Source: an uncultured Acidimicrobiales bacterium (GTDB lineage Bacteria > Actinomycetota > Acidimicrobiia > Acidimicrobiales > VFJN01). Taken from it: a stretch of DNA of 64,000 nucleotides. The DNA lies in NCBI GenBank assembly GCA_963830865.1, contig CAWHNU010000011.1, positions 605,210 through 669,209 on the forward strand, in the 5' to 3' direction. The translations under genes and the position numbers were made by a program. Positions within the stretch are counted from its first letter, which is position 1, and each line of letters begins with the position of its first letter. Below are positions 36,392-52,771 of the stretch, piece by piece. The notes beneath the pieces were generated by a model, which worked only from the letters and a program-made list of their open reading frames with translations, did no database searches and was not told where the DNA came from.

Positions 36392-37132
36392 ATGGTCGCC
36401 CTCGCCCGCCCCCGCCCCCGACTGGCCGTCCGGCCCGGGCACGTGGCCGGCGCCCGGGCGATGGCCGCCTGGCTGCCCGGCATGGCCACGTACGGCCTGG
36501 TCGTGGGGGTCGCGGCCGGCAAGGCCGACGTGCCGGCGCTGGCGGGCTGGTTGACCGGGCCGCTCGTCTACTCGGGCGGTGCCCAGGTCGCGGCGCTGGG
36601 GCTGCTCGACGCCCGGGCCGCGACCCTCGTCGTCGTGGCCACCGTGCTCGCCATCAACGCCCGCCTCCTCGTCTACTCGGCGGCCGCCGGCGCCCGCTGG
36701 CGCAACACGCCGCGGTGGTGGCGGGTGCTTGCGTGCTACCTGCTCGTCGACCCCAGCTTCGCCGTCGGCGCGGACGGCTACGCCCGGGCCGACGCCGCGG
36801 GCGCGGACGCTGGCGCGATGGCCGAGGCCCACGATCACTACATGGGTGCCGCCGTCACGCTCTGCGCTACCTGGCTGCTGGCCACCGGCATCGGGGTCCT
36901 GACCGCCGACGCCCTCCCGGCCCGCCTGGAGCTGGCCTTCGTCGTCCCGCTCTTCCTGCTGGGCGAGACCCAGCGCCGCGCCAAGGGGCGCGTCGCGTTC
37001 CGGGCCGTGGTCGTCACTGTCACGGTCGCGACCCTCGGCCGGGCGATGCCCCTGCACCTCGGCGTCCTCGCCGCCATCGTGGCCGGCCTGGCCGTCGCCG
37101 CGCTCACCCCCACCCCGGAGGACCACCGATGA
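36392..37132 (+). CDS. azlC: AzlC family branched-chain amino acid exporter subunit
   Basis: Multi-TM protein. GGAQVAALGLL and INARLLVYSAA motifs. Followed by azlD. Confidence 0.8.
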   Translation: MVALARPRPRLAVRPGHVAGARAMAAWLPGMATYGLVVGVAAGKADVPALAGWLTGPLVYSGGAQVAALGLLDARAATLVVVATVLAINARLLVYSAAAGARWRNTPRWWRVLACYLLVDPSFAVGADGYARADAAGADAGAMAEAHDHYMGAAVTLCATWLLATGIGVLTADALPARLELAFVVPLFLLGETQRRAKGRVAFRAVVVTVTVATLGRAMPLHLGVLAAIVAGLAVAALTPTPEDHR

Positions 37133-37223
37133 CCGAGCGAAGCGAGGTCCATAAGCACAGTCGTGTTATCGCCACGAAGTGGCGATCCGGTCACCGGTGC
37201 GCCCGAAGGGTGCACCAGTGACC
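37129..37223 (+). repeat. 95-nt structured intercistronic cassette, copy 1 (MIRU-like)
   Basis: 94/95 identical to the reverse complement of 51706-51800. Starts ATGACC, overlapping the azlC TGA. Ends GTGACC, which is the azlD start. Contains two GAA-loop hairpins. Confidence 0.9.
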
Positions 37224-37544
37224 GTGTGGCTCACCCTGCTGGTCGCCGGCGCGGCCAGCTACGCGTTCCGGCTCGTGCCGGCCGTGCTCGTCGACCGTGT
37301 CGGTGCGCTCGGCCGGGTCGAGCGGATCTCGGCCTACGCCGTGCCGGTGACGTTCGCGGCCGTGGCCGCCGACGCCGTCGTGGCGCGGGCCGCGGCCGCG
37401 ACGGGCGGTCCGCTCGACGTGCTCGCGCCCGTGGCGGCCGCCGCGGTGGCCGTCCTCGCCGCCCGCCGGACCGGCTCGTCGCTCGCCGCCATCGCGGCCG
37501 GCCTGCCCGTCCTCTGGGCCCTGACGTGGGCGGCAGGCCGATGA
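37218..37544 (+). CDS. azlD: AzlD family branched-chain amino acid exporter small subunit
   Basis: VTVWLTLLVAGAASYAFRLVPAVLV... About 108 aa, hydrophobic. The GTG lies inside the cassette 3' arm. Confidence 0.75.
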   Translation: MTVWLTLLVAGAASYAFRLVPAVLVDRVGALGRVERISAYAVPVTFAAVAADAVVARAAAATGGPLDVLAPVAAAAVAVLAARRTGSSLAAIAAGLPVLWALTWAAGR

Positions 37545-42754: not shown

Positions 42755-43011
42755 GAGTGCCTCCCTTAGCTCAGTTGGGTTGAGACACCCGGTCTGACCG
42801 CCGGCGCCGGCGGTGGTTACCGCGCGTTCGCGTGTCGGTGTGTGGCGAACCCGCTCTGGACCCGCGTGGCGCGTGCGCGGTGCGCAAGGGGGCCGGTCCA
42901 CCCGGGGGAGGGGCGGGCAGGGGTCGGCGCAACCGGGGCCATCACCGGGGCGAACCGGTCGGTACTCTCCTCTCCCGTGCCGCAGCCTCTGCGCAACCGC
43001 ACGCGTGGTCG

Positions 43012-46000
43012 GTGTCCCTCGTCGGCCGGACCGGGCAGCGTGCGGCGCTGCGGCAGTGGGTCGGCGACGCCTGCGCCGGGGAGCTCCGGGTCGTCGACAT
43101 CTCGGGGCCGACCGGCATCGGCAAGTCCCGGCTGCTCGAGTGGGCGGCGGAGGAGATGCGCCGGCGGCGCGGGCTCGTGTGCGTCGGCCGCTGCGTGCCC
43201 GGGCTGTCGCACCCGTTGGGCCCGATCGTCGACGCGCTCGGCGCCCTCGGCGCCCGGCTGCCCGTGCCGGCGGGGCCCGCGCCGGGCGACCTGCTGCTGC
43301 CCGCGTCGGCGATCGACCAGCCCGGGCTCGGCGTCATCCGGTCGCTCGCCGACCTGCTGCTGCAGCAGGCGGCCACCCGTCCGGTGCTGCTCGCACTGGA
43401 GGACCTGCAGTGGGCGCAGGCCGGGACGCTGCACGGGTTCGAGCAGCTCGTCTACATGCTGGCGGCCGGGGGTGGGCACGGCCGGATCATGGTGGTCATG
43501 ACGCACCGCCACGTCGAAGGCGACGACGGGGCGGCGGGCACTGTGGCGCGGCTGGTGCACGAGCCCGCGTTCCGGGACCTTCCGCTCGACCCGCTGTCCG
43601 AGGTCGAGGTGTACGAGCTGCTGCGCCGCCTGGCGCCGGACGCGTCCGATCCCCGGCTGGCGCGCGACGTCTACGACACCTCGCACGGCAATCCGCTCGT
43701 GGCGATCGTCGCCACCGACGAGGCGACCGCCACCGGCCGACGGCTCGACCGGCTCGGCCGCCGGCCGTCCGCCGAGTCGCCGGACGACGTGATCGCCCGG
43801 CGGTTCGCACGGCTCTCGACCGCCGCGGTCGGCGTCGCCCAGGCCCTGGCCGTCGGCGGGGGCGGACTGGCGCTCCGCGACCTCGTCGTGGTCGCCGAGC
43901 TGGCCGACGAGGACGTCCTCGCCGGGCTGGACGAGCTCGAGCGGGCCGGACTCGTCCACGTCGGCGGCACCCGGGCGGAGCTGGCCTATTCCGAGATCGT
44001 CGAGATGGCGCTCGGGGCTGCGAGCTCGCGCACCCGCTGGTCTCTGCACGGCCGGATGGCCGAGCTCGTCGCCATGCGGCCGGGCGACGACACCGACCTC
44101 GTCGAGCTGAGCCACCACCTCGAGCGGGCCGGACCGGCGCACACGCACCAGCTCGACGGCGTCGCCGCGGCCGCTGCGGACCAGGCGTTCGCCGCCGGGG
44201 CGTGGGGCCGTGGCGGCGCACCTCTACGAGATCGCGCTGGCGGCGGCGCCGGCGCCAGGGGAGGCGCCACCGGACGCCCGGGCGCTGGCGGCGCTGGAGG
44301 AGAAGGCCGGCATCGCCTGCTTCCGGGACTTCGACGGCGCCGGCTGCGCCGCGGCACCTGCGCCGGGCGGCGGACCTGGCCGGCGCCGCGGGCGACGCGG
44401 CCACCGCCGCCCGTGCCGACGCTCTGGCTGGTCCGCCGCAGCTTCACCGCCGGCACGGAGGCGATCGGGCGGTCCGTCGACGTCGGCCCGGTCGAGGCCC
44501 TACTCGTCCCGGGCGAGCCCGGCCGAGATCCGGGCGCAGGCCCACGGGTTGCTGGCGGAGGTGGCGTTCCAGGCCAACGACCTGCCCCGGGCGCACGACC
44601 ACGCCGCCGAGGCATCGGCGCTGGCGGGGCTGGTCGGCGAGGACTTCGTGCTGTTCACCGTGGCGTTCGCCCGGGGCCTCACCCAGCTCGGCCTCCTGGA
44701 GGCCGAGGCGGCGGCGGCGAGCTTCGGCGAGGCGGACGCGCTGTGTCCGGCGCAGGGGCCGGACGTTCCAGGCCGCCGCTGGCGCCACCCGGTTGGCGGC
44801 GGCCGAGCTGGTGCGAGGCGACCTCGCCGCGGCGGAGGAGGCGGCGTCCTCCGGCGGCGACGATGCGCAGCGGGTCGGCGAACTGGGCCGACCACGCCCT
44901 CGCCCACACGATGTCCACGGTCGTGTCGGGGGTGACCGGCCGTTTCGACGATCAGGAGGATCACGCGGAGCTGTCCCGCATCAGCTGCGGGCGGTCGGGG
45001 ACCACGTTCCCGCCGCTAGTGCTGCACCCGGCCATCGCCTGGGGCCGGGCCGCTCGGGGTGACGTCGACGGCGCCCACGCGGCGCTGGCCGAGCTCGACG
45101 CCGCCGGCGGCCGGGCGGCGCGCTACGCCGCGGCGGTCGACGTCATGGCGGACGTACCGGGAGGTGCGAGGTCGACCTCGACCGGTCACGAGTGGCGGGC
45201 CCATCCCGAGGAGCTGACCGCCTACGACGCGGGCGCGGACGCGGCCCAGCTCGAGCTGGCCATCCACGCCGGCGACGCGCGACCAGGTCGCCGCCGGCCT
45301 CCGACTGTTCGAGCGGCTGCACCGGCGGGGCATCCGCGTCGTGCTGGAGTGGCCGGTCCTCGTGTCCCGGCTGGTCGCCGAGGCCCACGCCTGCCTCGAC
45401 CATGCGACCGAGGCCGGCGAGTGGGTTGCGCCTGGCCAGCGCGGAGGCGGACGCGGCCGGCGCCCGGCCCGAGTCGGCACGCGTCGACCTGGTCGAGGCG
45501 GGCAGGCCTGCTGCTCGCCGCAGGGGCACGACGAGCCCGTCCGGGCCGGCGTCGAGCTGATCGACCGGGCGACGGCGGCCTTCGACGCCCTGGGCATGCT
45601 GCCGTTCGCCCGGCGGGCCCAGCGGCTGTTCGATCGGCCGCCGGTGATCGACGCCGTCCGGGCGGCGGCTCCGGCCCCGGACGGTGCTGTTCACAGACAT
45701 CGTCGACTCGACCGCCTGGAACGTGCGGCTCGGCGACGACCACTGGATGGTGCTGCTCGCCGAGCACAACCGGCTGGCGCGCTCCGAGGTCCGGCGGTGG
45801 CGGGGCGCCGTCGTGAAGACGACCGGCGACGGCATCTGCGCCTGGTTCGGGGACCCGACCGACGCGGTCGACTGCGCCGAGTCGCTCCAACGCTCGTTCG
45901 ACGAGTTCACCCAGACCCACCCGGACACGCCGATCGCGCTGCGCTGCGGCCTGGCGGTGGGCGATGTGTACGACTTCGACGGCGACCTGGCGGGACTGGC

Positions 46001-46195
46001 GGTGACCGAGGCGGCCCGGATCTGCGCCGTGGCCACCGGCGGCCAGGTCGTCACCTCCGCGGCGGTGACGGACGTCGACCGCCGGGCCGAGCGCACCTAC
46101 CACGAGCTCGGGCGCCACGTGCTGAAGGGCATCCCGGACGCGCAGCCCCTATTCGGGTCATCGTCGGACCGGACGAGACCACCGGGGTGGCATGA
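43012..46195 (+). pseudogene. AAA ATPase + TPR + class III adenylate/guanylate cyclase gene, at least 10 frameshifts in 44.2-46.2 kb
   Basis: Intact over 43012-44205 (Walker A GPTGIGKSRLL, LLALEDLQWAQ). After that the recognisable protein text hops between all three frames. Cyclase domain VLFTDIVDSTAW...TTGDGICAWFG at 45684-46155. Confidence 0.75.
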
Positions 46196-46238
46196 CGTCC
46201 ACCGGCATGAGGAGGCGGACAGGAGGGAGAGGGGGCCG

Positions 46239-47441
46239 ATGGGATTCATGCCGTACCCCTGGGAGAAGGGTTTCTTCCCCACGGCCGTAGAGCACTGGTT
46301 CAACGAGGACCTCGCTGAGTGCAGACCTCAACGACACGCTGCAGCAGATCCTCGCGGGAAGGGTCCCGAGCGGCGGCTGCGGGCGATCTGGCGCTACGCC
46401 GACGTCTGCCGCAGGCTGCGCCTCGGCGAGGCCGGGAACCCGGGCCCAGATCCGGACGGTGACCGCCGAGAACTCGATCATCGAGTCGGCCCTGTTCGCC
46501 GACGGCAAGGTCACGGCCAACCCGGCGTGGCTTCGGCAGAAGGTGTGCCGAAGACTGGTTCGGCAGAGATGCAGAAGATCGGCAACACGTGGTACCGCCA
46601 GGACCCGGGCACGTGGGCGCCCGAAGTCGCTCGGGCACTGGAACGGCTACTTCGGCAACGTCGAGCTGATCGTCTGCGAGACGCTCCAACGGATGCTGGA
46701 GCTGTCGCTCGGGGTCGAGCACCTCGTGCTCGCCACACACCGACGCGGCGACGAGATCCACGACATCGAGGAACGTCTCCGGGACCACGCCACCGGGTCT
46801 GGCCGGTCTACATGTTCCTGAGCTGTCCCAACCCGTGGTTCGAGGGATGGGTGACGTGGCAGTGCCACGCCACCAACTCGCCCCTGCGGGGGCAGGTCAC
46901 GGTGACGCTCTCGACGCCCGGCCACGCCCGGGCCGTCACGCCGTCCCCGATCGACGTCGAGAAGGACAAAGACACGCTGACGATCCCGGGCAAGGCCACG
47001 GCGCCCAACCCGTACTACCTGCACGGACGCGAGCCGGACGCCCAACCGCGGCTACAGGGGCGACTACATCACGATCACGAACGCCTTGGCGTTGAGCGCC
47101 GCCGGTGACGTGGTGCCACGACCTTCAGTCGCAAGCGGGACGCACCGACTGGCGACGGCGTCGTCAAGGGCGAGGCGCGCCCCACTATCACCAGGGCATG
47201 TGGCTGGTCACCCACGCCAACCACGACAGCACGATCGTGTGGAACAACTTCCCGGAGCCGACGTCGCCGACCTGGAACCAGCCGGATGTCGAGTCGTGGG
47301 ACCTTCCGCCCTTCGCGGTGCACCGGTGCGCCGCTCAGGGAGCGCCGGGACCTGGGTGGGAATTCCGACCCGGCGACGCTGACCGGCCTGTACGACGTGG
47401 TCGTCGTGCAGCCGGCCTCGCGCGACGGCGGCGTGTGGTGA
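46239..47441 (+). pseudogene. unknown ~400-aa gene broken by about 10 frameshifts
   Basis: GGAGGGA plus ATG 46239 gives MGFMPYPWEKGFFPTAVEHWFNEDLAE. Protein-like segments then alternate between frames, for example HWNGYFGNVELIVCETLQRMLELSLGVEHLVLATH, VYMFLSCPNPWFEGWVTWQCHATNSPLRGQVTVTL, and MWLVTHANHDSTIVWNNFPEPTSPTW. Confidence 0.45.
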
Positions 47442-48111: not shown

Positions 48112-48169
48112 GGAACTGGCAGCGGATTCGTACCGCCGGGGCATTGAGCGCTGCCAGAACCGGTGCGCC
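48112..48169 (+). repeat. intact REP-like hairpin unit (empty IS target copy)
   Basis: GGAACTGGCAGCG...CGCTGCCAGAACC arms (9 bp + 2 bp). A second unit is split into 48182-48215 and 49726-49749 by the IS. Confidence 0.75.
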
Positions 48170-48314
48170 GCGGTGCGGCCCGGAACTGACAGCGGATTCA
48201 TACCGCCAGGGCACTGATGCGATGAAGGAGCGGGGCCTCCGCTCCCCGTGAGAACCCAGGTCGGGGAGACTTGGGGCTTCTCACAGCATGTTCCTCACGA
48301 CGAGGGAGGCCCCT

Positions 48315-49328
48315 ATGGGACGACAGTATGTCGGGATCGATCTGCATCGGCGCCGGTCGGTGATCGTGCGGATGACCCAGGCGGGTGAGGTGCTCGACAC
48401 GGTTCGGATCGATAACGATCCGGTGGCGTTGTCGTTGGCGGTCGCCGAGGCGGGACCGGAACCTGAGGTGGTCCTGGAGGCGACCTACGGCTGGTATTGG
48501 GCCGCGGATCTGCTAGAAGCGAACGGTGCCCGGGTGCATCTGGCGCATCCGTTGGGGATGAAGGGCTTCGAGAACCGGCGGGTGAAGAACGACACCCGCG
48601 ATGCCCGGGACTTGGCGGACGTGTTGCGCATGGGCCGGCTGCCCGAAGCGTGGATCGCCCCACCGGAGCTGCGGGAGTTGCGCGAGCTGGTCCGCTATCG
48701 CGCCAAGCTCGTCGCTTTACGCTCAGGGCTCAAGGCACAGGTGCACGCCACGATCGCCAAGCTTGGCGTCCCGGTCCGGGTCACCGATCTGTTCGGCGTG
48801 GCTGGCACCGCCATGCTCGATGACCTCGAGTTGCCCGGCGCGTATGCCCATCGGGTCGGGTCGCTGCGCCATCTGATCGCCGGGTACGACAGCGAAGTGA
48901 CGAGGTTGTCGGAGATGATCGCCGGCGAGCTCGAGGGCCACACGGGCTACCAGGCGGTGCAGGCCATCTGCGGGGTCGGGCCGGTCCTGGCGGCGGTGTT
49001 CGTGGCCGAGATCGGCGACGTGACCAGGTTCCACGGTCCCCGCCAGCTGGCATCGTGGGCCGGGCTCACGCCCCGCCACCACGAGTCCGACACGACCGTG
49101 CACCGCGGGCACATCACCAAACAGGGTTCCCGGCTGGTGCGCTGGGCGGCGCTGGAAGCGGTTGCCCGCCAACGAGGCGGCACCTACCTCCAGGAGCACT
49201 ACCGGGCCCTGACCGAGCGGCGTAACAGCAAGGGCATCGCCAAGGTCGCTATCGCCCGGCGGCTGTTGCATCTCGTGTACTACGGCCTGCGAGACGGCGA
49301 GATCCGCTGCCTCGCCGAGACCGCATGA
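48315..49328 (+). CDS. IS110 family transposase (DEDD/RuvC-like N-domain + C-terminal Tnp domain)
   Basis: GGGAGG lies before ATG 48315. YVGIDLHRRRS, EATYGWYW, KNDTRDARDLA, ICGVGPVLAAVFVAEIGDVTRF, AGLTPRHHESDTTVHRGHITKQGSRLVRW. Confidence 0.9.
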   Translation: MGRQYVGIDLHRRRSVIVRMTQAGEVLDTVRIDNDPVALSLAVAEAGPEPEVVLEATYGWYWAADLLEANGARVHLAHPLGMKGFENRRVKNDTRDARDLADVLRMGRLPEAWIAPPELRELRELVRYRAKLVALRSGLKAQVHATIAKLGVPVRVTDLFGVAGTAMLDDLELPGAYAHRVGSLRHLIAGYDSEVTRLSEMIAGELEGHTGYQAVQAICGVGPVLAAVFVAEIGDVTRFHGPRQLASWAGLTPRHHESDTTVHRGHITKQGSRLVRWAALEAVARQRGGTYLQEHYRALTERRNSKGIAKVAIARRLLHLVYYGLRDGEIRCLAETA

Positions 49329-49725
49329 CCCGGTCCGGACGCAGCCAGAGCGCGAGCCCGCGCAGCGCTCTGATCCCCCACCCGGCGCGATCGCCCATCT
49401 GATTGAGCCCGCCTGGCTGCGGCCGCAACCGCTCCATGCCGAACCTCACGGCGAAGGGATGAGCAGGCACCCGGACCGGGACAGCCTCAAACACCTGATC
49501 GACACGGGTTCTGGAGACGGCCACCACGCGTCCACCCGACGCCCACATCGCCGATTCCGTCGCCGGCCTCAAGGTCGTTCGTCCTCGCTCCGCTGCGGGC
49601 GCTCCACCTTGACCCCGCCGACTCCACCGGCGCGCCCGCACCCAACCCCCCGGCCCTACGGGCCGGCGGAAACGGCCTCGACGTGGTCGACACAGCCCCT
49701 TGCCAAACCCCACTCCTTCAGGGAT
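49329..49725 (+). ncRNA. candidate bridge/seeker RNA region in the long 3' non-coding end of the IS
   Basis: 397 nt with no credible ORF. Contains CAGCGCTC (complement of the right target flank) and ATTGAGC (identical to the target across the insertion point). The assignment is inferred from published IS110-family biology. Confidence 0.3.
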
Positions 49726-49760
49726 GAGCGCTGTCAGAACGGGTGCGCCCCTCGCCGGAC

Positions 49761-50543
49761 CTACAGGCCCTGCCACGGGGGCTTGCCCCGCCACGTCTCC
49801 CGGTAGTGGTCGGCGAGCGCCAGGGCGGACGCCGCCGGCTCGTCGACCACGACCGTGACGTGGGGGTGGAGCTGGAGGGCGGACGCCGGGACCATCGCCG
49901 TCACGGGGCCCTCGACCATGCCGGACACCGCGTCCGCCTTCGCGTCGCCGAAGGCGACGAGGACGAGGTGCCGCGCCTCCAGGATGGTGCCGACCCCCTG
50001 GGTGACGACGTGGCGGGGGACCGCGTCGGGGTCCGGGAAGAAGCGGGCGTTGTCGGCCCGGGTGCGGGCGGTGAGCGTCTTGATCCGCGTCCGGGACGCC
50101 AGCGACGAGCCCGGCTCGTTGAAGGCGACGTGCCCGTCGCTGCCGATGCCCAGCAGCTGGAGGTCCACGCCGCCCGCCGCGGCGATGGCGGCCTCGTAGG
50201 CGGCGCACGCCGCCGGCAGGTCGGCCGCCGTCCCGTCGGGGCCTCGGATCGCTCCCGGGGCGACGTCGACGTGGCGCTCGAAACGATCCCCGACGAACCG
50301 GCGGTACGACTGCGGGTGGTCGGGTCCCAGGCCGACGTACTCGTCGAGCAGGAACCCGCGCACCCGGGCGAAGCTCAGCTCGCCCGCGGCGTGGCGGCGG
50401 GCCAGGTCGCGGTAGACGGCGAGCGGTGAGCTGCCCGTCGCCAGGCCCAGCACCGCGTCCGGCCGTGCCCGCACGAGCGCGGCGATCGCGCCGCCGACCA
50501 GGGCGCCGGCCTCGTCCGGGCAGCCGACGATCACGACCTCCAC
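49761..50543 (-). CDS. nagB: glucosamine-6-phosphate deaminase
   Basis: GAGGAGG lies 7 nt before GTG 50543. LGLATGSSPL, LDEYVG, LLGIGSDGHVAFNEPGSS. Confidence 0.9.
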   Translation of the reverse strand: MEVVIVGCPDEAGALVGGAIAALVRARPDAVLGLATGSSPLAVYRDLARRHAAGELSFARVRGFLLDEYVGLGPDHPQSYRRFVGDRFERHVDVAPGAIRGPDGTAADLPAACAAYEAAIAAAGGVDLQLLGIGSDGHVAFNEPGSSLASRTRIKTLTARTRADNARFFPDPDAVPRHVVTQGVGTILEARHLVLVAFGDAKADAVSGMVEGPVTAMVPASALQLHPHVTVVVDEPAASALALADHYRETWRGKPPWQGL

Positions 50544-51711
50544 GACGCGGCCTCCTCGCGGCGGTCGTCGGCGACGCGGCCGGCGGCGACGGTGGCGACC
50601 AGCCCGCCGCCGGCGTCCACCAGCACGATGTCGGCGACCGCGCCCGGGGCGATCGTGCCCCGGTCCGTCCGGCCCAGCGTGGCCGCCGGGGCCGCGCTCG
50701 CCGCGGCCAGCGCGTCGGCCAGCGGGACGCCGGCGAAGGCGACCAGGTTGCGGACCGCCCGGTCGAGCGCCAGCGTGCTGCCGGCGAGCGTCCCGTCCGG
50801 CAGGCGGACGCCGTCGTCGCCGGCCTCGGCCCACTGCGACGCCAGGCGGACCGGCCCGCCCGGCGCGCCCAGCGCCGCCACCGCGTCGGTGACCAGCGTG
50901 AGCCGGTCGCCCAGGGCGCGGGCGGCGAGGGCGACCACCGCCGGGTCGACGTGGACGCCGTCGGCGATCACGCCGACCCGCACCCGCTCGTCGGTGAGCG
51001 CCACGCCGGGCAGCCCCGGCTCGCGGTGGCCGAGCGGGACCATGGCGTTGAACAGGTGGGTGACGTAGCGGACCCCGGCGTCGATCGCGGCCCGGGACTC
51101 CGCGGCGGTGGCCGACGAGTGGCCCGCGGCCACGACGATGCCCGCCTCGGCCAGGTCGCGCACCACGCCCAGCGCCCCCGGCAGCTCGGGAGCCAGCGTC
51201 ACCAGGGCGACGCCGTCGGACCAGCCCTCGTCCGCGGGCAGCGCCGGGTCCGGCGGCACGAGCCGGTCGGCCGGGTGGGCGCCCCGGCGCTCGCGGGCGA
51301 GGAACGGCCCCTCCAGGTGGAGGCCCAGCGGCACGGCCCGCGGCCGGTCGTCCCCGGGCGGCGGTCCGCGCGCAGCGCCGCCAGCGCCCGGCGGCGCATC
51401 TCGGCCGGCCCGGTCACGATCGTCGGCAGCCACGCCGTCACGCCCCAACGCGGGAGCGCGGCCGCCACGTCCCACAGGCGCTCGGGCTCGCTCGACAGGT
51501 CGACCCCGACCGCCCCGTTGCACTGCAGGTCGACGAGCCCGGGGGCGACGAGCAGCCCGGTGGCGTCGAGCGCCGGCCCGGGCGGGCCCGGCGAGCCCGG
51601 CGGGTCGATGTGGGCGATGCGGCCGCCGGCGATCGCCACGTCGGCGCGGATCGGGCCCGCAGGCGTGAGCACCGTGCCGCCCGCGACCACGAGGTCGGGC
51701 GGCCCGGTCAC
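50531..51711 (-). CDS. nagA: N-acetylglucosamine-6-phosphate deacetylase, one frameshift near 51355
   Basis: GLVDLQCNG, then after a CCCGGGG run LGLHLEGPFL, GHSSAT, VTHLFNAM and DGVHVDP in the adjacent frame. GTG 51711 lies inside cassette copy 2. Confidence 0.8.
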
Positions 51712-51800
51712 CGGTGCACCCTTCGGGCGCACCGGTGACCGGATCGCCACTTCGTGGCGATAACACGACTGTGCTTATGGACCTCGCTTCGCTCGGTCAT
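51706..51800 (-). repeat. 95-nt structured intercistronic cassette, copy 2
   Basis: The reverse complement is 94/95 identical to 37129-37223. ATG overlaps the TGA of the ROK kinase gene, and the terminal GTGACC starts nagA. Confidence 0.9.
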
Positions 51801-52771
51801 GCCGGGTCGACGACCGGGCGGAGGTCGCCGTCGCGGTGCCGGTTCCGAGCCAGCACCGCCGCGCCCAGGGCGCCCGCGGGCACGCCGGGCGGCACCAGCG
51901 CCACCCGGTCGGCCAGGTCGATGGCGGCGAGGACCGGCGAGCGGCCGGCCCGGCGCCGCAGCGCGGCCCGGACCGCGTCGAGCAGGCCGGCGCCGGCCTC
52001 GGCCACGCCGCCCCCCAGCACGACCACCTCGGGGTCGACCGTCTGCGCCAGGAGCGCGACCGCCCCGGCCAGGTGGCCGGCCACCTCGTCGAGTAGCGCC
52101 GTCGCCGCGGGGTCGCCGCTGCCGGCCGCCGCGAGCAGCGACGCGGCCGCGGTGACCTCGCCGTCGCCGGACGGCCAGCGGGCGGCGATGGCCGCGCCCG
52201 ACGCCAGCGCCTCCAGGCAACCGCGTTGGCCGCACTCGCAGAGCGGTCCCTCCGGGTCGATCGGCAGGTGCCCGATCTCGCCCGCGGCGCCGTGGGCGCC
52301 GCGGCGGATCCGCCCGTCCAGCACGAAGCCGGCGGCCAGTCCCGTACCGACGCTCAGGTAGGCCAGGTCGCCCCGGCAGTCGAGGGCGACCGCGGCGCCG
52401 AGCGCCGCCAGGTTGACGTCGTTCTCGACCACGACGGGGGCCCCGGCGAGCTCGGCCAGGTGGTCGGCCAGCCCGACCGGGTCGGCGCCCAGCCCGAGGT
52501 TGACCGCGTGGCGCACGGTGCCCGCAGCCCGGTCGACCAGGCCGGGGACGCCGACGCCGACCGCCGCGAACCCCGCGGCACCCAGGCCGGCGGCCTCGGC
52601 CAGCTCGGCGAGCACCGCGCCGGTCGACGACAGCAGCCCGTCGCCCCCGCCCCCGGTCGGCCGGCGGACGGTGGCGAGCACGGTGCCGCTCCCCGCGTCG
52701 ACGGCGACCGCCAGCGTCTTGGTGCCGCCGACGTCGAGGCCGGCGACGACGGGCGGGGTGGGCTCAGGCAT
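51797..52771 (-). CDS. ROK family sugar (N-acetylglucosamine) kinase
   Basis: VAGLDVGGTKT, GEIGHLPIDPEGPLCECGQRGCLEA (ROK zinc motif). No HTH domain. Confidence 0.85.
   Translation of the reverse strand: MPEPTPPVVAGLDVGGTKTLAVAVDAGSGTVLATVRRPTGGGGDGLLSSTGAVLAELAEAAGLGAAGFAAVGVGVPGLVDRAAGTVRHAVNLGLGADPVGLADHLAELAGAPVVVENDVNLAALGAAVALDCRGDLAYLSVGTGLAAGFVLDGRIRRGAHGAAGEIGHLPIDPEGPLCECGQRGCLEALASGAAIAARWPSGDGEVTAAASLLAAAGSGDPAATALLDEVAGHLAGAVALLAQTVDPEVVVLGGGVAEAGAGLLDAVRAALRRRAGRSPVLAAIDLADRVALVPPGVPAGALGAAVLARNRHRDGDLRPVVDPA

Follow-up and report, generated by a model that had tools for sequence, protein, structure and literature searches.

Mycobacterial interspersed repetitive units (MIRUs) are short repeats of Mycobacterium that insert at start codons and carry a coupled open reading frame (ORF) at -4 spacing (Supply et al. 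1997, summarised in PMC12548453). Both filled and empty sites have been reported for them, as have tetranucleotide direct repeats and ORFs that overlap the neighbouring genes (PMC3184786), and literature searches turned up no account of such an element outside Mycobacterium. Here, we describe a repeat with similar habits from an uncultured Acidimicrobiales bacterium. It occurs twice in a stretch of 64,000 nucleotides (contig CAWHNU010000011.1 of assembly GCA_963830865.1, forward-strand positions 605,210 to 669,209; hereafter the window), once at the junction of azlC and azlD and once at the junction of a ROK-family sugar kinase gene and nagA (Table 1). We present evidence that it represents a real, previously unannotated and strongly hairpinned family that behaves like MIRUs. 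Furthermore, we argue that it is probably a mobile, non-autonomous Acidimicrobiales repeat and that, as has been proposed for MIRUs, it probably passes ribosomes on by termination-reinitiation.

The initial annotation of the window had singled out two copies of a 95-nt cassette, and both were recovered at the positions it gave, on opposite strands, identical at 94 of 95 positions and flanked by unrelated sequences. Similarity between the copies ends sharply at both borders. Each copy begins, as annotated, with ATGACC, the ATG of which overlaps the TGA of the upstream gene, and ends with GTGACC, the GTG of which overlaps the TGA of an internal ORF. The single A/G difference between the copies is likewise genuine, but it lies at element position 89 (37217 in copy 1, 51712 in copy 2) rather than at position 88; copy 2 has the G there, on the minus strand, which closes a C67-G89 pair. 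The GC content of the element is 62%, compared with 73.6% for the window. No copy beyond these two was found within the window, either by sub-motif searches for which about zero matches were expected by chance or with the covariance model described below.

Evidence for insertion comes from relatives in which the same junctions are empty, exactly as had been predicted for azlC/azlD. Loci L048-L052 share the FMO-azlC-azlD-PIG-L synteny of the window locus and encode AzlC proteins 82-85% identical to that of the window, and their azlC-azlD junction lacks the element (...ggaggaccaccgATGACCGTGTGGCTC, with an intact 4-nt overlap, ATGACCGTGTGG). The filled junction, present in the window and in a 99% identical contig (L047), contains 89 bp of extra DNA, so that the net insertion is 89 bp and not the 95 bp first proposed. 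In relatives 82-86% identical, the ROK/nagA junctions are plain GTGA overlaps without the element. Because the relatives' junctions are empty, both window insertions are younger than the split from these relatives, and a private linker variant common to the two window copies, together with the empty relatives, suggests that the copies were amplified recently within the genome. A 5-bp duplication of TGACC had also been proposed. The repeat is indeed found at both borders and only once in the empty site, but a true duplication and a sequence shared between the target and the end of the element look alike. At azlC/azlD the border repeat is TGACCG; across the family it is TGACC, often TGACCG, and in 10 of 44 copies the 3' TGACN is unlike the 5' TGACC.

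At a few junctions the element is present in two diverged genomes (L035/L039, L027/L041 and L022/L046), as would be expected if the sequence were ancestral at these junctions or had spread by recombination or gene conversion instead of insertion. This explanation is highly improbable, since the overlaps at the empty sites of syntenic relatives are perfectly intact, different copies have unrelated flanks, and the extra DNA is bounded by short direct repeats.

The element is not confined to the window, an outcome in favour of the initial annotation: we found 47 copies in total, at about 40 sites, in metagenome-assembled genomes (MAGs) of Acidimicrobiales and in soil metagenomes, most of the loci being short metagenome contigs. 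A scan of genome contigs with the 21-mer of hairpin 2 of the window yielded full copies in only two MAGs, both of uncultured Acidimicrobiales (L001 and L002). This pattern proved unduly narrow, since TGCGCC...ATTC is what the majority of copies have at this place. A metagenome scan with the core of hairpin 3 returned 43 contigs, mostly from soil, of which 38 held a full element or a short variant. A covariance model (R1) was built from the copies of both scans and then run on the loci; it added copies that the patterns had missed, namely two more in L001 (three copies within 8 kb) and diverged ones in L040 (2438-2535) and L030 (1958-2058). The copy in L046 was reached by way of a protein profile. 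Copies within a genome are near-identical, and the nearest relatives of the AzlC and ROK proteins of the window are named Acidimicrobiales bacterium; an exact look-up of the window ROK protein matched no record. A blastn search of 72,556 plasmids with the 95-mer gave partial matches at chance level only, two scans of viral contigs gave none, and in the window no Rfam family reached its gathering threshold, the best permissive scores being 19 bits against cut-offs of at least 95.

Throughout the family the element occupies a start codon. All copies begin on the A or G of the start codon of a gene, with A at position 1 in 36 copies, G in 8 and C or T in none, and this usage resembles that of native starts in related loci (53 ATG versus 36 GTG). 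Position 90 of the element is almost always G. An ORF runs downstream from the terminal GTG or ATG in 45 of 45 copies assessed, in the same orientation as the element and with a GC content at third codon positions (GC3) of 0.84-1.00; these ORFs are at least 68 codons long in all but one case, which runs off its contig after 9 codons. The genes so preceded are varied and include azlD, nagA and genes for a PP2C phosphatase and for aroQ-like, thiolase-like, lipoprotein and VOC-like products. Location in an ATGA overlap, as initially described, is true of both window copies and of most others but does not extend to the family as a whole. The upstream contexts comprise overlaps of the ATGA type with a real gene, spacers 5-55 nt in length that contain a Shine-Dalgarno (SD) sequence and, in L023, a divergent gene or promoter region, and some copies occupy the first gene of a transcription unit or follow an SD sequence in true intergenic DNA. 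The common denominator of the insertion sites is a start codon followed by ACC, not a stop/start overlap.

The flanks show a preference as well, with C at -1 in 28 of 37 copies and G at +1 in 33 of 38; C60 can pair with the flanking G. In 89.5 kb of related DNA with called genes, 13 of 90 genes start with (A/G)TGACC, and 42 TGACC sites are wholly intergenic. None of the 47 copies lies at a non-start TGACC, although intergenic non-start sites outnumber start sites by about 3 to 1. In two different genomes (L020, 460-554, and L032, 719-813, both on the minus strand) the element stands at the start of apparently the same gene, with N-termini ...VVLLLSGPNLNLL and ...TVLLLNGPNLN, which by these residues resembles type II dehydroquinase. 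The upstream contexts of the two are unrelated, and the pair reflects either repeated insertion at a hot spot or an old, inherited copy with later rearrangement.

The cassette had been called structured, and its predicted RNA fold (-50.8 kcal/mol, z = -6.5 versus shuffles) contains three hairpins. All three loops are G-N-A closed by C-G, the middle base being free (A, C, G or T) among copies. Hairpin 3, which has the family form GGTCAC-N-GGTGCGCCC[GNA]GGGTGCACC-N-GTGACC, encloses an SD-like GAAGGG and the restart GTG of azlD (37218-37220). Within the conserved unpaired block GCACAGTCG, the part GCACAGTC (alignment columns 28-35) differs in at most 2 of 38 copies. Covariation, for which the initial annotation had suggested a test, was assessed on 44 copies: 98.7% of the cells at paired positions are paired, and 8 pairs have changed on both sides, compared with 1.1 +/- 0.9 pairs in shuffles (none of 500 reached 8) and at most 2 with slid partners. 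Compensations in hairpin 3 affect the pairs 61/95 (C-G in L014, T-A in L035), 62/94 (C-G in L032) and 66/90 (T-A in L006, L046 and L030b); in the last case the change of G90 to A is accompanied by that of C66 to T, which keeps both the pair and the start codon, now ATG. In two diverged copies, L040 2438-2535 and L030 1958-2058, compensated forms of hairpin 2 occur, CGGCAC/GTGCCG and CGGCCC/GGGCCG. Variation per column is 0.75 in stems and 5.8 in unpaired columns.

Copies at the same gene in different genomes show the same partition of change. L035 and L039 differ at 11 unpaired columns and L020 and L032 at 10, and in the stems of each pair of copies only one base-pair differs, and it is compensated; third codon positions in the flanks of L035 and L039 are only 67% identical. 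This comparison is consistent with the stems being selected at the sites that the copies occupy, the alternatives being independent insertions at a hot spot or the correction of palindromes by template switching. Compensated stems kept in same-gene copies despite diverged flanking synonymous sites also speak for a cis-regulatory RNA recruited by the host, a leader that would gate downstream translation, for example by way of temperature or of a protein or ligand that acts on hairpin 3, and for which mobility would only have assembled the regulon. The restart codon and the SD-like GAAGGG are buried in hairpin 3, as such a gate would have it, and the conserved unpaired block could be a candidate binding site. 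We nevertheless consider a host-recruited leader quite unlikely, given that the downstream genes have no common theme, that close relatives lack the element at the same junctions, that no Rfam family was matched and that near-identity among the copies of one genome is what a recent burst would leave.

The reading frame through the element is preserved in a manner that its peptide is not. No internal stop occurs in frame 1 in any of the 43 complete copies, and in 42 of them the ORF stop overlaps the terminal GTG or ATG restart. The exception (L001 576-668, 93 nt) is fused in frame, and P0003 is another in-frame fusion to the downstream gene. Length variants differ by -33, -3, +3, +6, +24 or +51 nt or by compensated +1/-1 pairs, and it is this indel pattern, together with the conserved stop/start overlap, that carries the argument for a relay of frame. 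The supposition that the peptide is probably not the selected product is supported by the distribution of changes, since variation per column is 3.1, 3.9 and 3.0 at codon positions 1, 2 and 3, respectively. The middle of the peptide shifts when hairpin 2 compensates (ATKWR, SARSA, SARRA). A profile of the relay peptide and the frame-3 translation found 3 matches among 5.8 billion proteins, and the relay peptide had no match in Pfam. The ORF is, on these sequence patterns, probably a relay and not a protein gene, and its peptide is not under selection at the amino-acid level.

Were the ORF instead a small-protein gene with the 30-aa basic peptide as its selected product, its being open in every copy would be explained, as would the recurrence, even in diverged copies, of M(T/S)ERSE at the N-terminus and RRVH(Q) at the C-terminus. 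These conserved ends, however, coincide with hairpins 1 and 3, the equal variation at the three codon positions tracks stem or non-stem status instead, and the middle of the peptide varies freely with the compensation of hairpin 2. The ORF withstands a 33-nt deletion as well as duplications of 24 nt and 51 nt; the low GC3 first remarked upon is borne out, at 0.73 in the internal ORF versus 0.95-0.96 in azlC and azlD (0.95 in host genes); and the three database proteins and the empty Pfam search also count against a protein gene, which we regard as very improbable.

These observations are best accommodated by the following sequence of events. The element would insert at (A/G)TGACC, that is, at a start codon with the common second codon ACC, and add 89 bp. 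The resident start codon, fed by the stop of an upstream ATGA or by its own SD sequence, would then open the 30-codon ORF of the element, and the TGA of this ORF, overlapping an element-borne GTG (GTGA), would restore the displaced gene as Met-Thr-.... Ribosomes translating the relay ORF would melt hairpin 3 and free the buried GAAGGG and GTG, terminate at the TGA and reinitiate at the overlapping GTG. Because ribosomes would terminate and reinitiate in this way, the gene is proposed to keep both its expression and its coupling to the former start signals. The GNA-triloop hairpins may serve mobilisation, possibly as folded single-stranded DNA, or act as a gate for the restart codon, or both.

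Several points weigh against a mobile ribosome relay. We infer reinitiation from architecture alone, and the part assigned to the hairpins is inferential too. The copies are GC-rich, and their other two frames are largely open as well, with stops in 2 of 43 copies for frame 2 and in 11 of 43 for frame 3; given 41 copies without a stop in frame 2, a lack of stops is by itself weak evidence. Apparent stem conservation is inflated, as stem positions 68-88 were set by the metagenome search pattern and the alignment (A4) was fitted to the model; moreover, template-switch correction in palindromes can produce compensatory changes without selection. Neither a transposase for the element nor a full-length parent element was found among the loci. 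Finally, if TGACC were the sole target and only coding insertions were purged, most surviving copies would be expected at intergenic non-start sites, and the purging of harmful insertions alone therefore fails to explain why no copy is found there.

As to the enzyme that moves the element, one may suspect a route through single-stranded DNA from the GNA hairpins, the missing terminal inverted repeats and the small size. One such route, compatible with the relay and concerning the mobilisation step only, would be the movement of folded single-stranded DNA by an HUH (Y1) transposase of the IS200/IS605 type or of the type associated with repetitive extragenic palindromes (REPs), the REP-associated tyrosine transposases (RAYTs). 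Insertion would then occur beside a fixed TGACC without true duplication, TGACC being both the target and the right end of the element. Besides the missing inverted repeats, the subterminal hairpins and the fixed penta- or hexanucleotide at both borders agree with this proposal, 89 nt would be implausibly small for a double-stranded circle, and all loops are C-GNA-G. Hairpin 1 holds GCGNAGC, the "mini-hairpin DNA" motif, which is stable whatever the base N and whose stability is markedly greater in DNA than in RNA (PMC13037366; PMC3201870). We nonetheless regard an HUH route as less likely than not. No Y1 or RAYT gene was seen in about 360 kb from many genomes, which were not searched systematically for one, and the 3' TGACN mismatch described above is unfavourable. 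In IS608 the hairpins are not known to overlap the cleavage sites, whereas those of the element overlap the putative ones. The wobble evidence on the active strand is contradictory, G73.T83 pointing to the sense and C67.A89 to the antisense strand, and the assignment of a single active strand from wobbles was rejected on this ground.

The only transposase gene in the window belongs to the IS110 family and has one distant, partial match (L012, 36% identity) among the other loci. A role for it as mobiliser was rejected as unsupported, because the ends of the gene are unlike the element and its sole relative is distant and partial. The gene (48288-49328, plus strand; Pfam DEDD_Tnp_IS110 and Transposase_20) lies just downstream of nagB and is bracketed by a 25-nt direct repeat, TGAGCGCTGNCAGAACNGGTGCGCC, at 48145-48169 and 49725-49749; two copies of a 36-nt motif, GGAACTGNCAGCGGATTCNTACCGCCNGGGCAYTGA, precede it (48112-48217). 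GC content drops to 0.67-0.70 over 46-49.5 kb around this gene, with no evident link to the 95-nt element.

Comparison with other dispersed repeats helps to place the family. REPs and their paired forms, REPINs, are like the element short, GC-rich, hairpin-forming and dispersed, without a transposase gene or classical terminal inverted repeats, and in both the recognition of single-stranded hairpins is the suspected mode of mobilisation. REPs are described as extragenic palindromes of 20-40 nt tagged GTAG or CGTC (PMC3733652). No such tag is present in the element alignment, and no RAYT gene was identified in the partial genomes, where no search was aimed at RAYTs. REPs sit after genes, whereas the element is placed on start codons, where it would be translated throughout, and combines three different hairpins with a frame constraint. 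The palindrome-associated transposable elements (PATEs) derived from IS200/IS605 share with it the lack of terminal inverted repeats, the subterminal hairpins and a fixed target of 4-5 nt by one end; unlike PATEs, the element has the same pentanucleotide at both borders and hairpins that overlap these borders, and no relative of TnpA or TnpB was found. Exclusive location on start codons is not known as a property of IS200/IS605-derived elements. Classical MITEs, or miniature inverted-repeat transposable elements (such as Correia/NEMIS, Nezha and MITEAba12), are also small, non-autonomous and multi-copy, with short direct repeats, stable stem-loops and filled and empty sites. They differ in having terminal inverted repeats and a related insertion sequence (IS): the 5' end of the element, ATGACCGAGCG, does not match its reverse-complemented 3' end, GGTCACTGGTG, no parent IS was found among the loci examined, and insertion of the element is strictly oriented and on start codons.

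Coexistence with the translation of host genes is a trait of Rickettsia palindromic elements (RPEs) and of Neisseria REP2 (PMC3184786), the latter providing downstream genes with a ribosome-binding site as well as an ATG (PMC3184786). RPEs insert in frame inside genes and join the protein, and REP2 brings its own promoter and ribosome-binding site; the element instead takes over a resident start codon and would hand the ribosomes back through an overlapping stop and start.

The closest parallel remains that with MIRUs, which the initial annotation had drawn and which a 2025 review placing MIRUs at start codons with a coupled ORF makes apt (PMC12548453). Both are short repeats of Actinomycetota (40-100 bp) that lie at gene starts or between cistrons and are oriented with the flanking genes, and in both the start and stop of an internal ORF overlap the stop and start of the neighbours (ATGA type, -4 spacing). 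The direct repeats at the borders are reported as 4 nt in MIRUs and are 5-6 nt here. The unit length is 2 modulo 3 in each case (53 bp for MAP MIRU292, 89 bp for the element). When rotated, MAP MIRU292 starts with ATGAC, encodes MT...AERSD and shares an 11-nt block, GAGCGCAGCGA, with the element in the same frame; in this comparison with one MIRU unit (PMC7977185), local alignment gave p values of 0.008-0.2 versus shuffles and, beyond the 11-nt block, did not clearly exceed them. The copy shared by L046 and L022 sits between genes for an FHA protein and a PP2C phosphatase, and a MIRU of M. tuberculosis has been reported at an FHA/PP2C phosphatase junction (PMC3184786). The differences concern the host, uncultured Acidimicrobiales in one case and Mycobacterium in the other; the structure, the element being longer than a MIRU unit and dominated by three strong, covarying GNA-triloop hairpins; and the array, since MIRUs form tandem variable-number repeats whereas the element is a single unit at nearly all sites, with partial duplications only in L046, L030 and perhaps L021 (22 nt).

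Variant forms occur at a few loci. The copies L030 1958-2058 (minus strand) and L040 2438-2535 (plus strand) make up a diverged subfamily that scores 44-55 bits with R1 and starts (A/G)TGAGCGAGCGCAGCGAGCGAA; hairpins 2 and 3 are compensated in it, and an ATGA restart replaces GTGA in one copy. Short 62-nt variants are found in L017 (2136-2206) and L025 (348-409), both on the plus strand, with the frame open and hairpin 3 kept; that of L025 has lost hairpin 2 through an in-frame deletion of 33 nt, and that of L017 has a different 5' part. In L030 (1958-2110, minus strand) a 51-nt 5' half-unit precedes the diverged 101-nt copy in a partial tandem, and in L046 (8727-8845, plus strand) an internal duplication of 24 nt yields the peptide ERSEVQGA-ERSEAQGA, the frame being kept in each case; these two partial duplications recall the tandem arrays of MIRUs. 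At about 4700-4885 of L021 (minus strand) the first 22 nt of the downstream gene equal the 5' end of the element (GTGACCGAGCGGAGCGAGGTCC, MTERSEV...). This gene encodes a lipoprotein-like signal peptide with a lipobox-like LASGC, and its start resembles a further unit, truncated and joined to it in frame.

Five metagenome matches to the core of hairpin 3 only (L017, L036, L042, L009 and L031) were not counted as full copies. Those in L036 and L042 are taken as remnants or other elements, and hairpins that are terminator-like or due to chance probably account for those in L009 and L031. The match in L009 (31-89, plus strand) is an exact 21-mer of the core in an AT-rich contig, with runs of A and T beside it as in an intrinsic terminator; it is probably due to chance, about 2 occurrences of 20 fixed bases being expected, by our estimate, in such a collection.

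Table 1. Coordinates in the window of the two element copies, their parts and the adjoining genes
Feature	Position	Strand	Basis or remark
Element, copy 1	37129..37223	+	95 nt from occupied start codon through 3' TGACC; azlC/azlD junction; 116.6 bits with model R1
Element, copy 2	51706..51800	-	ROK kinase gene/nagA junction; 114.9 bits with model R1
Left TGACC direct repeat, copy 1	37130..37134	+	TGA is the azlC stop; with A37129 forms the relay-ORF ATG
Right TGACC direct repeat, copy 1	37219..37223	+	TGA is the relay-ORF stop; with G37218 forms the azlD GTG start
Relay ORF, copy 1	37129..37221	+	30 codons plus stop; MTERSEVHKHSRVIATKWRSGHRCARRVHQ, stop
Relay ORF, copy 2	51708..51800	-	ends ...RRVHR, stop; ATG overlaps ROK stop; TGA overlaps nagA GTG (51709-51711)
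Hairpin 1 (element positions 3-21)	37131..37149	+	GACC-GA-GC[GAA]GC-GA-GGTC; core GCGNAGC
Conserved unpaired block (element positions 27-35)	37155..37163	+	GCACAGTCG; alignment
Hairpin 2	37168..37186	+	ATCGCCAC[GAA]GTGGCGAT; conserved core CGCCAC/GTGGCG
Hairpin 3, copy 1 (element positions 61-95)	37189..37223	+	GGTCAC-C-GGTGCGCCC[GAA]GGGTGCACC-A-GTGACC
azlC, upstream of copy 1	36392..37132	+	Pfam AzlC and orthologues; start codon putative
azlD, start codon occupied by copy 1	37218..37544	+	Pfam AzlD; orthologues 108 aa, begin ATGACCGTGTGG
ROK-family sugar kinase gene, upstream of copy 2	51797..52771	-	Pfam ROK
nagA, start codon occupied by copy 2	50531..51711	-	tblastn with the L055 NagA orthologue

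The genes beside the two copies were identified by Pfam matches (AzlC, AzlD, ROK and NagB), except for nagA, which was identified by tblastn with an orthologue. Copy 2 sits in a ROK-nagA-nagB operon, and the same synteny is found in L053 and L055. The nagA gene is split across two frames near 51367-51397 (minus strand), tblastn with the orthologue covering residues 15-112 and 123-393; it is either a pseudogene or the product of an indel error in a long-read assembly. Broken genes occur also in relatives from sample ERZ25039531 (L046 and L054). Elsewhere in the window, at 42832-47108 (plus strand), two very long ORFs in different frames overlap each other, one of 994 aa that contains a P-loop-like GPTGIGKS and one of 474 aa; frameshifts may have broken up what was a single large regulator gene.

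The movement of MIRUs and their siting on start codons have been unexplained since 1997, and the family described here provides a second, independent and much cleaner case, with exact empty sites, a defined border repeat of 5-6 bp and about 40 sites that are all on start codons. Its constrained hairpin architecture could be used in seeking the mobilising enzyme. We also entertain, as a somewhat unlikely extension, that MIRU-type elements are the visible part of a broader and so far undescribed group of actinobacterial mobile DNAs that specifically target translation starts, move as single-stranded DNA with GNA mini-hairpins and are kept by the host as obligatory modules for relaying or gating ribosomes. 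The complete lack of copies at non-start TGACC supports active targeting of start sites over mere survivorship, and under this extension the ATGAC borders and the GAGCGCAGCGA block shared with MAP MIRU292 would be remnants of common ancestry. For genome annotation, the three protein matches among 5.8 billion indicate that gene callers almost never call the relay ORF, and the downstream gene may be mis-started at in-frame GTGs inside the element. If the relay is true, the element would be a natural, portable bicistronic-design cassette for high-GC bacteria, and it would show directly that selfish DNA can depend on termination-reinitiation as a sufficiently robust process.

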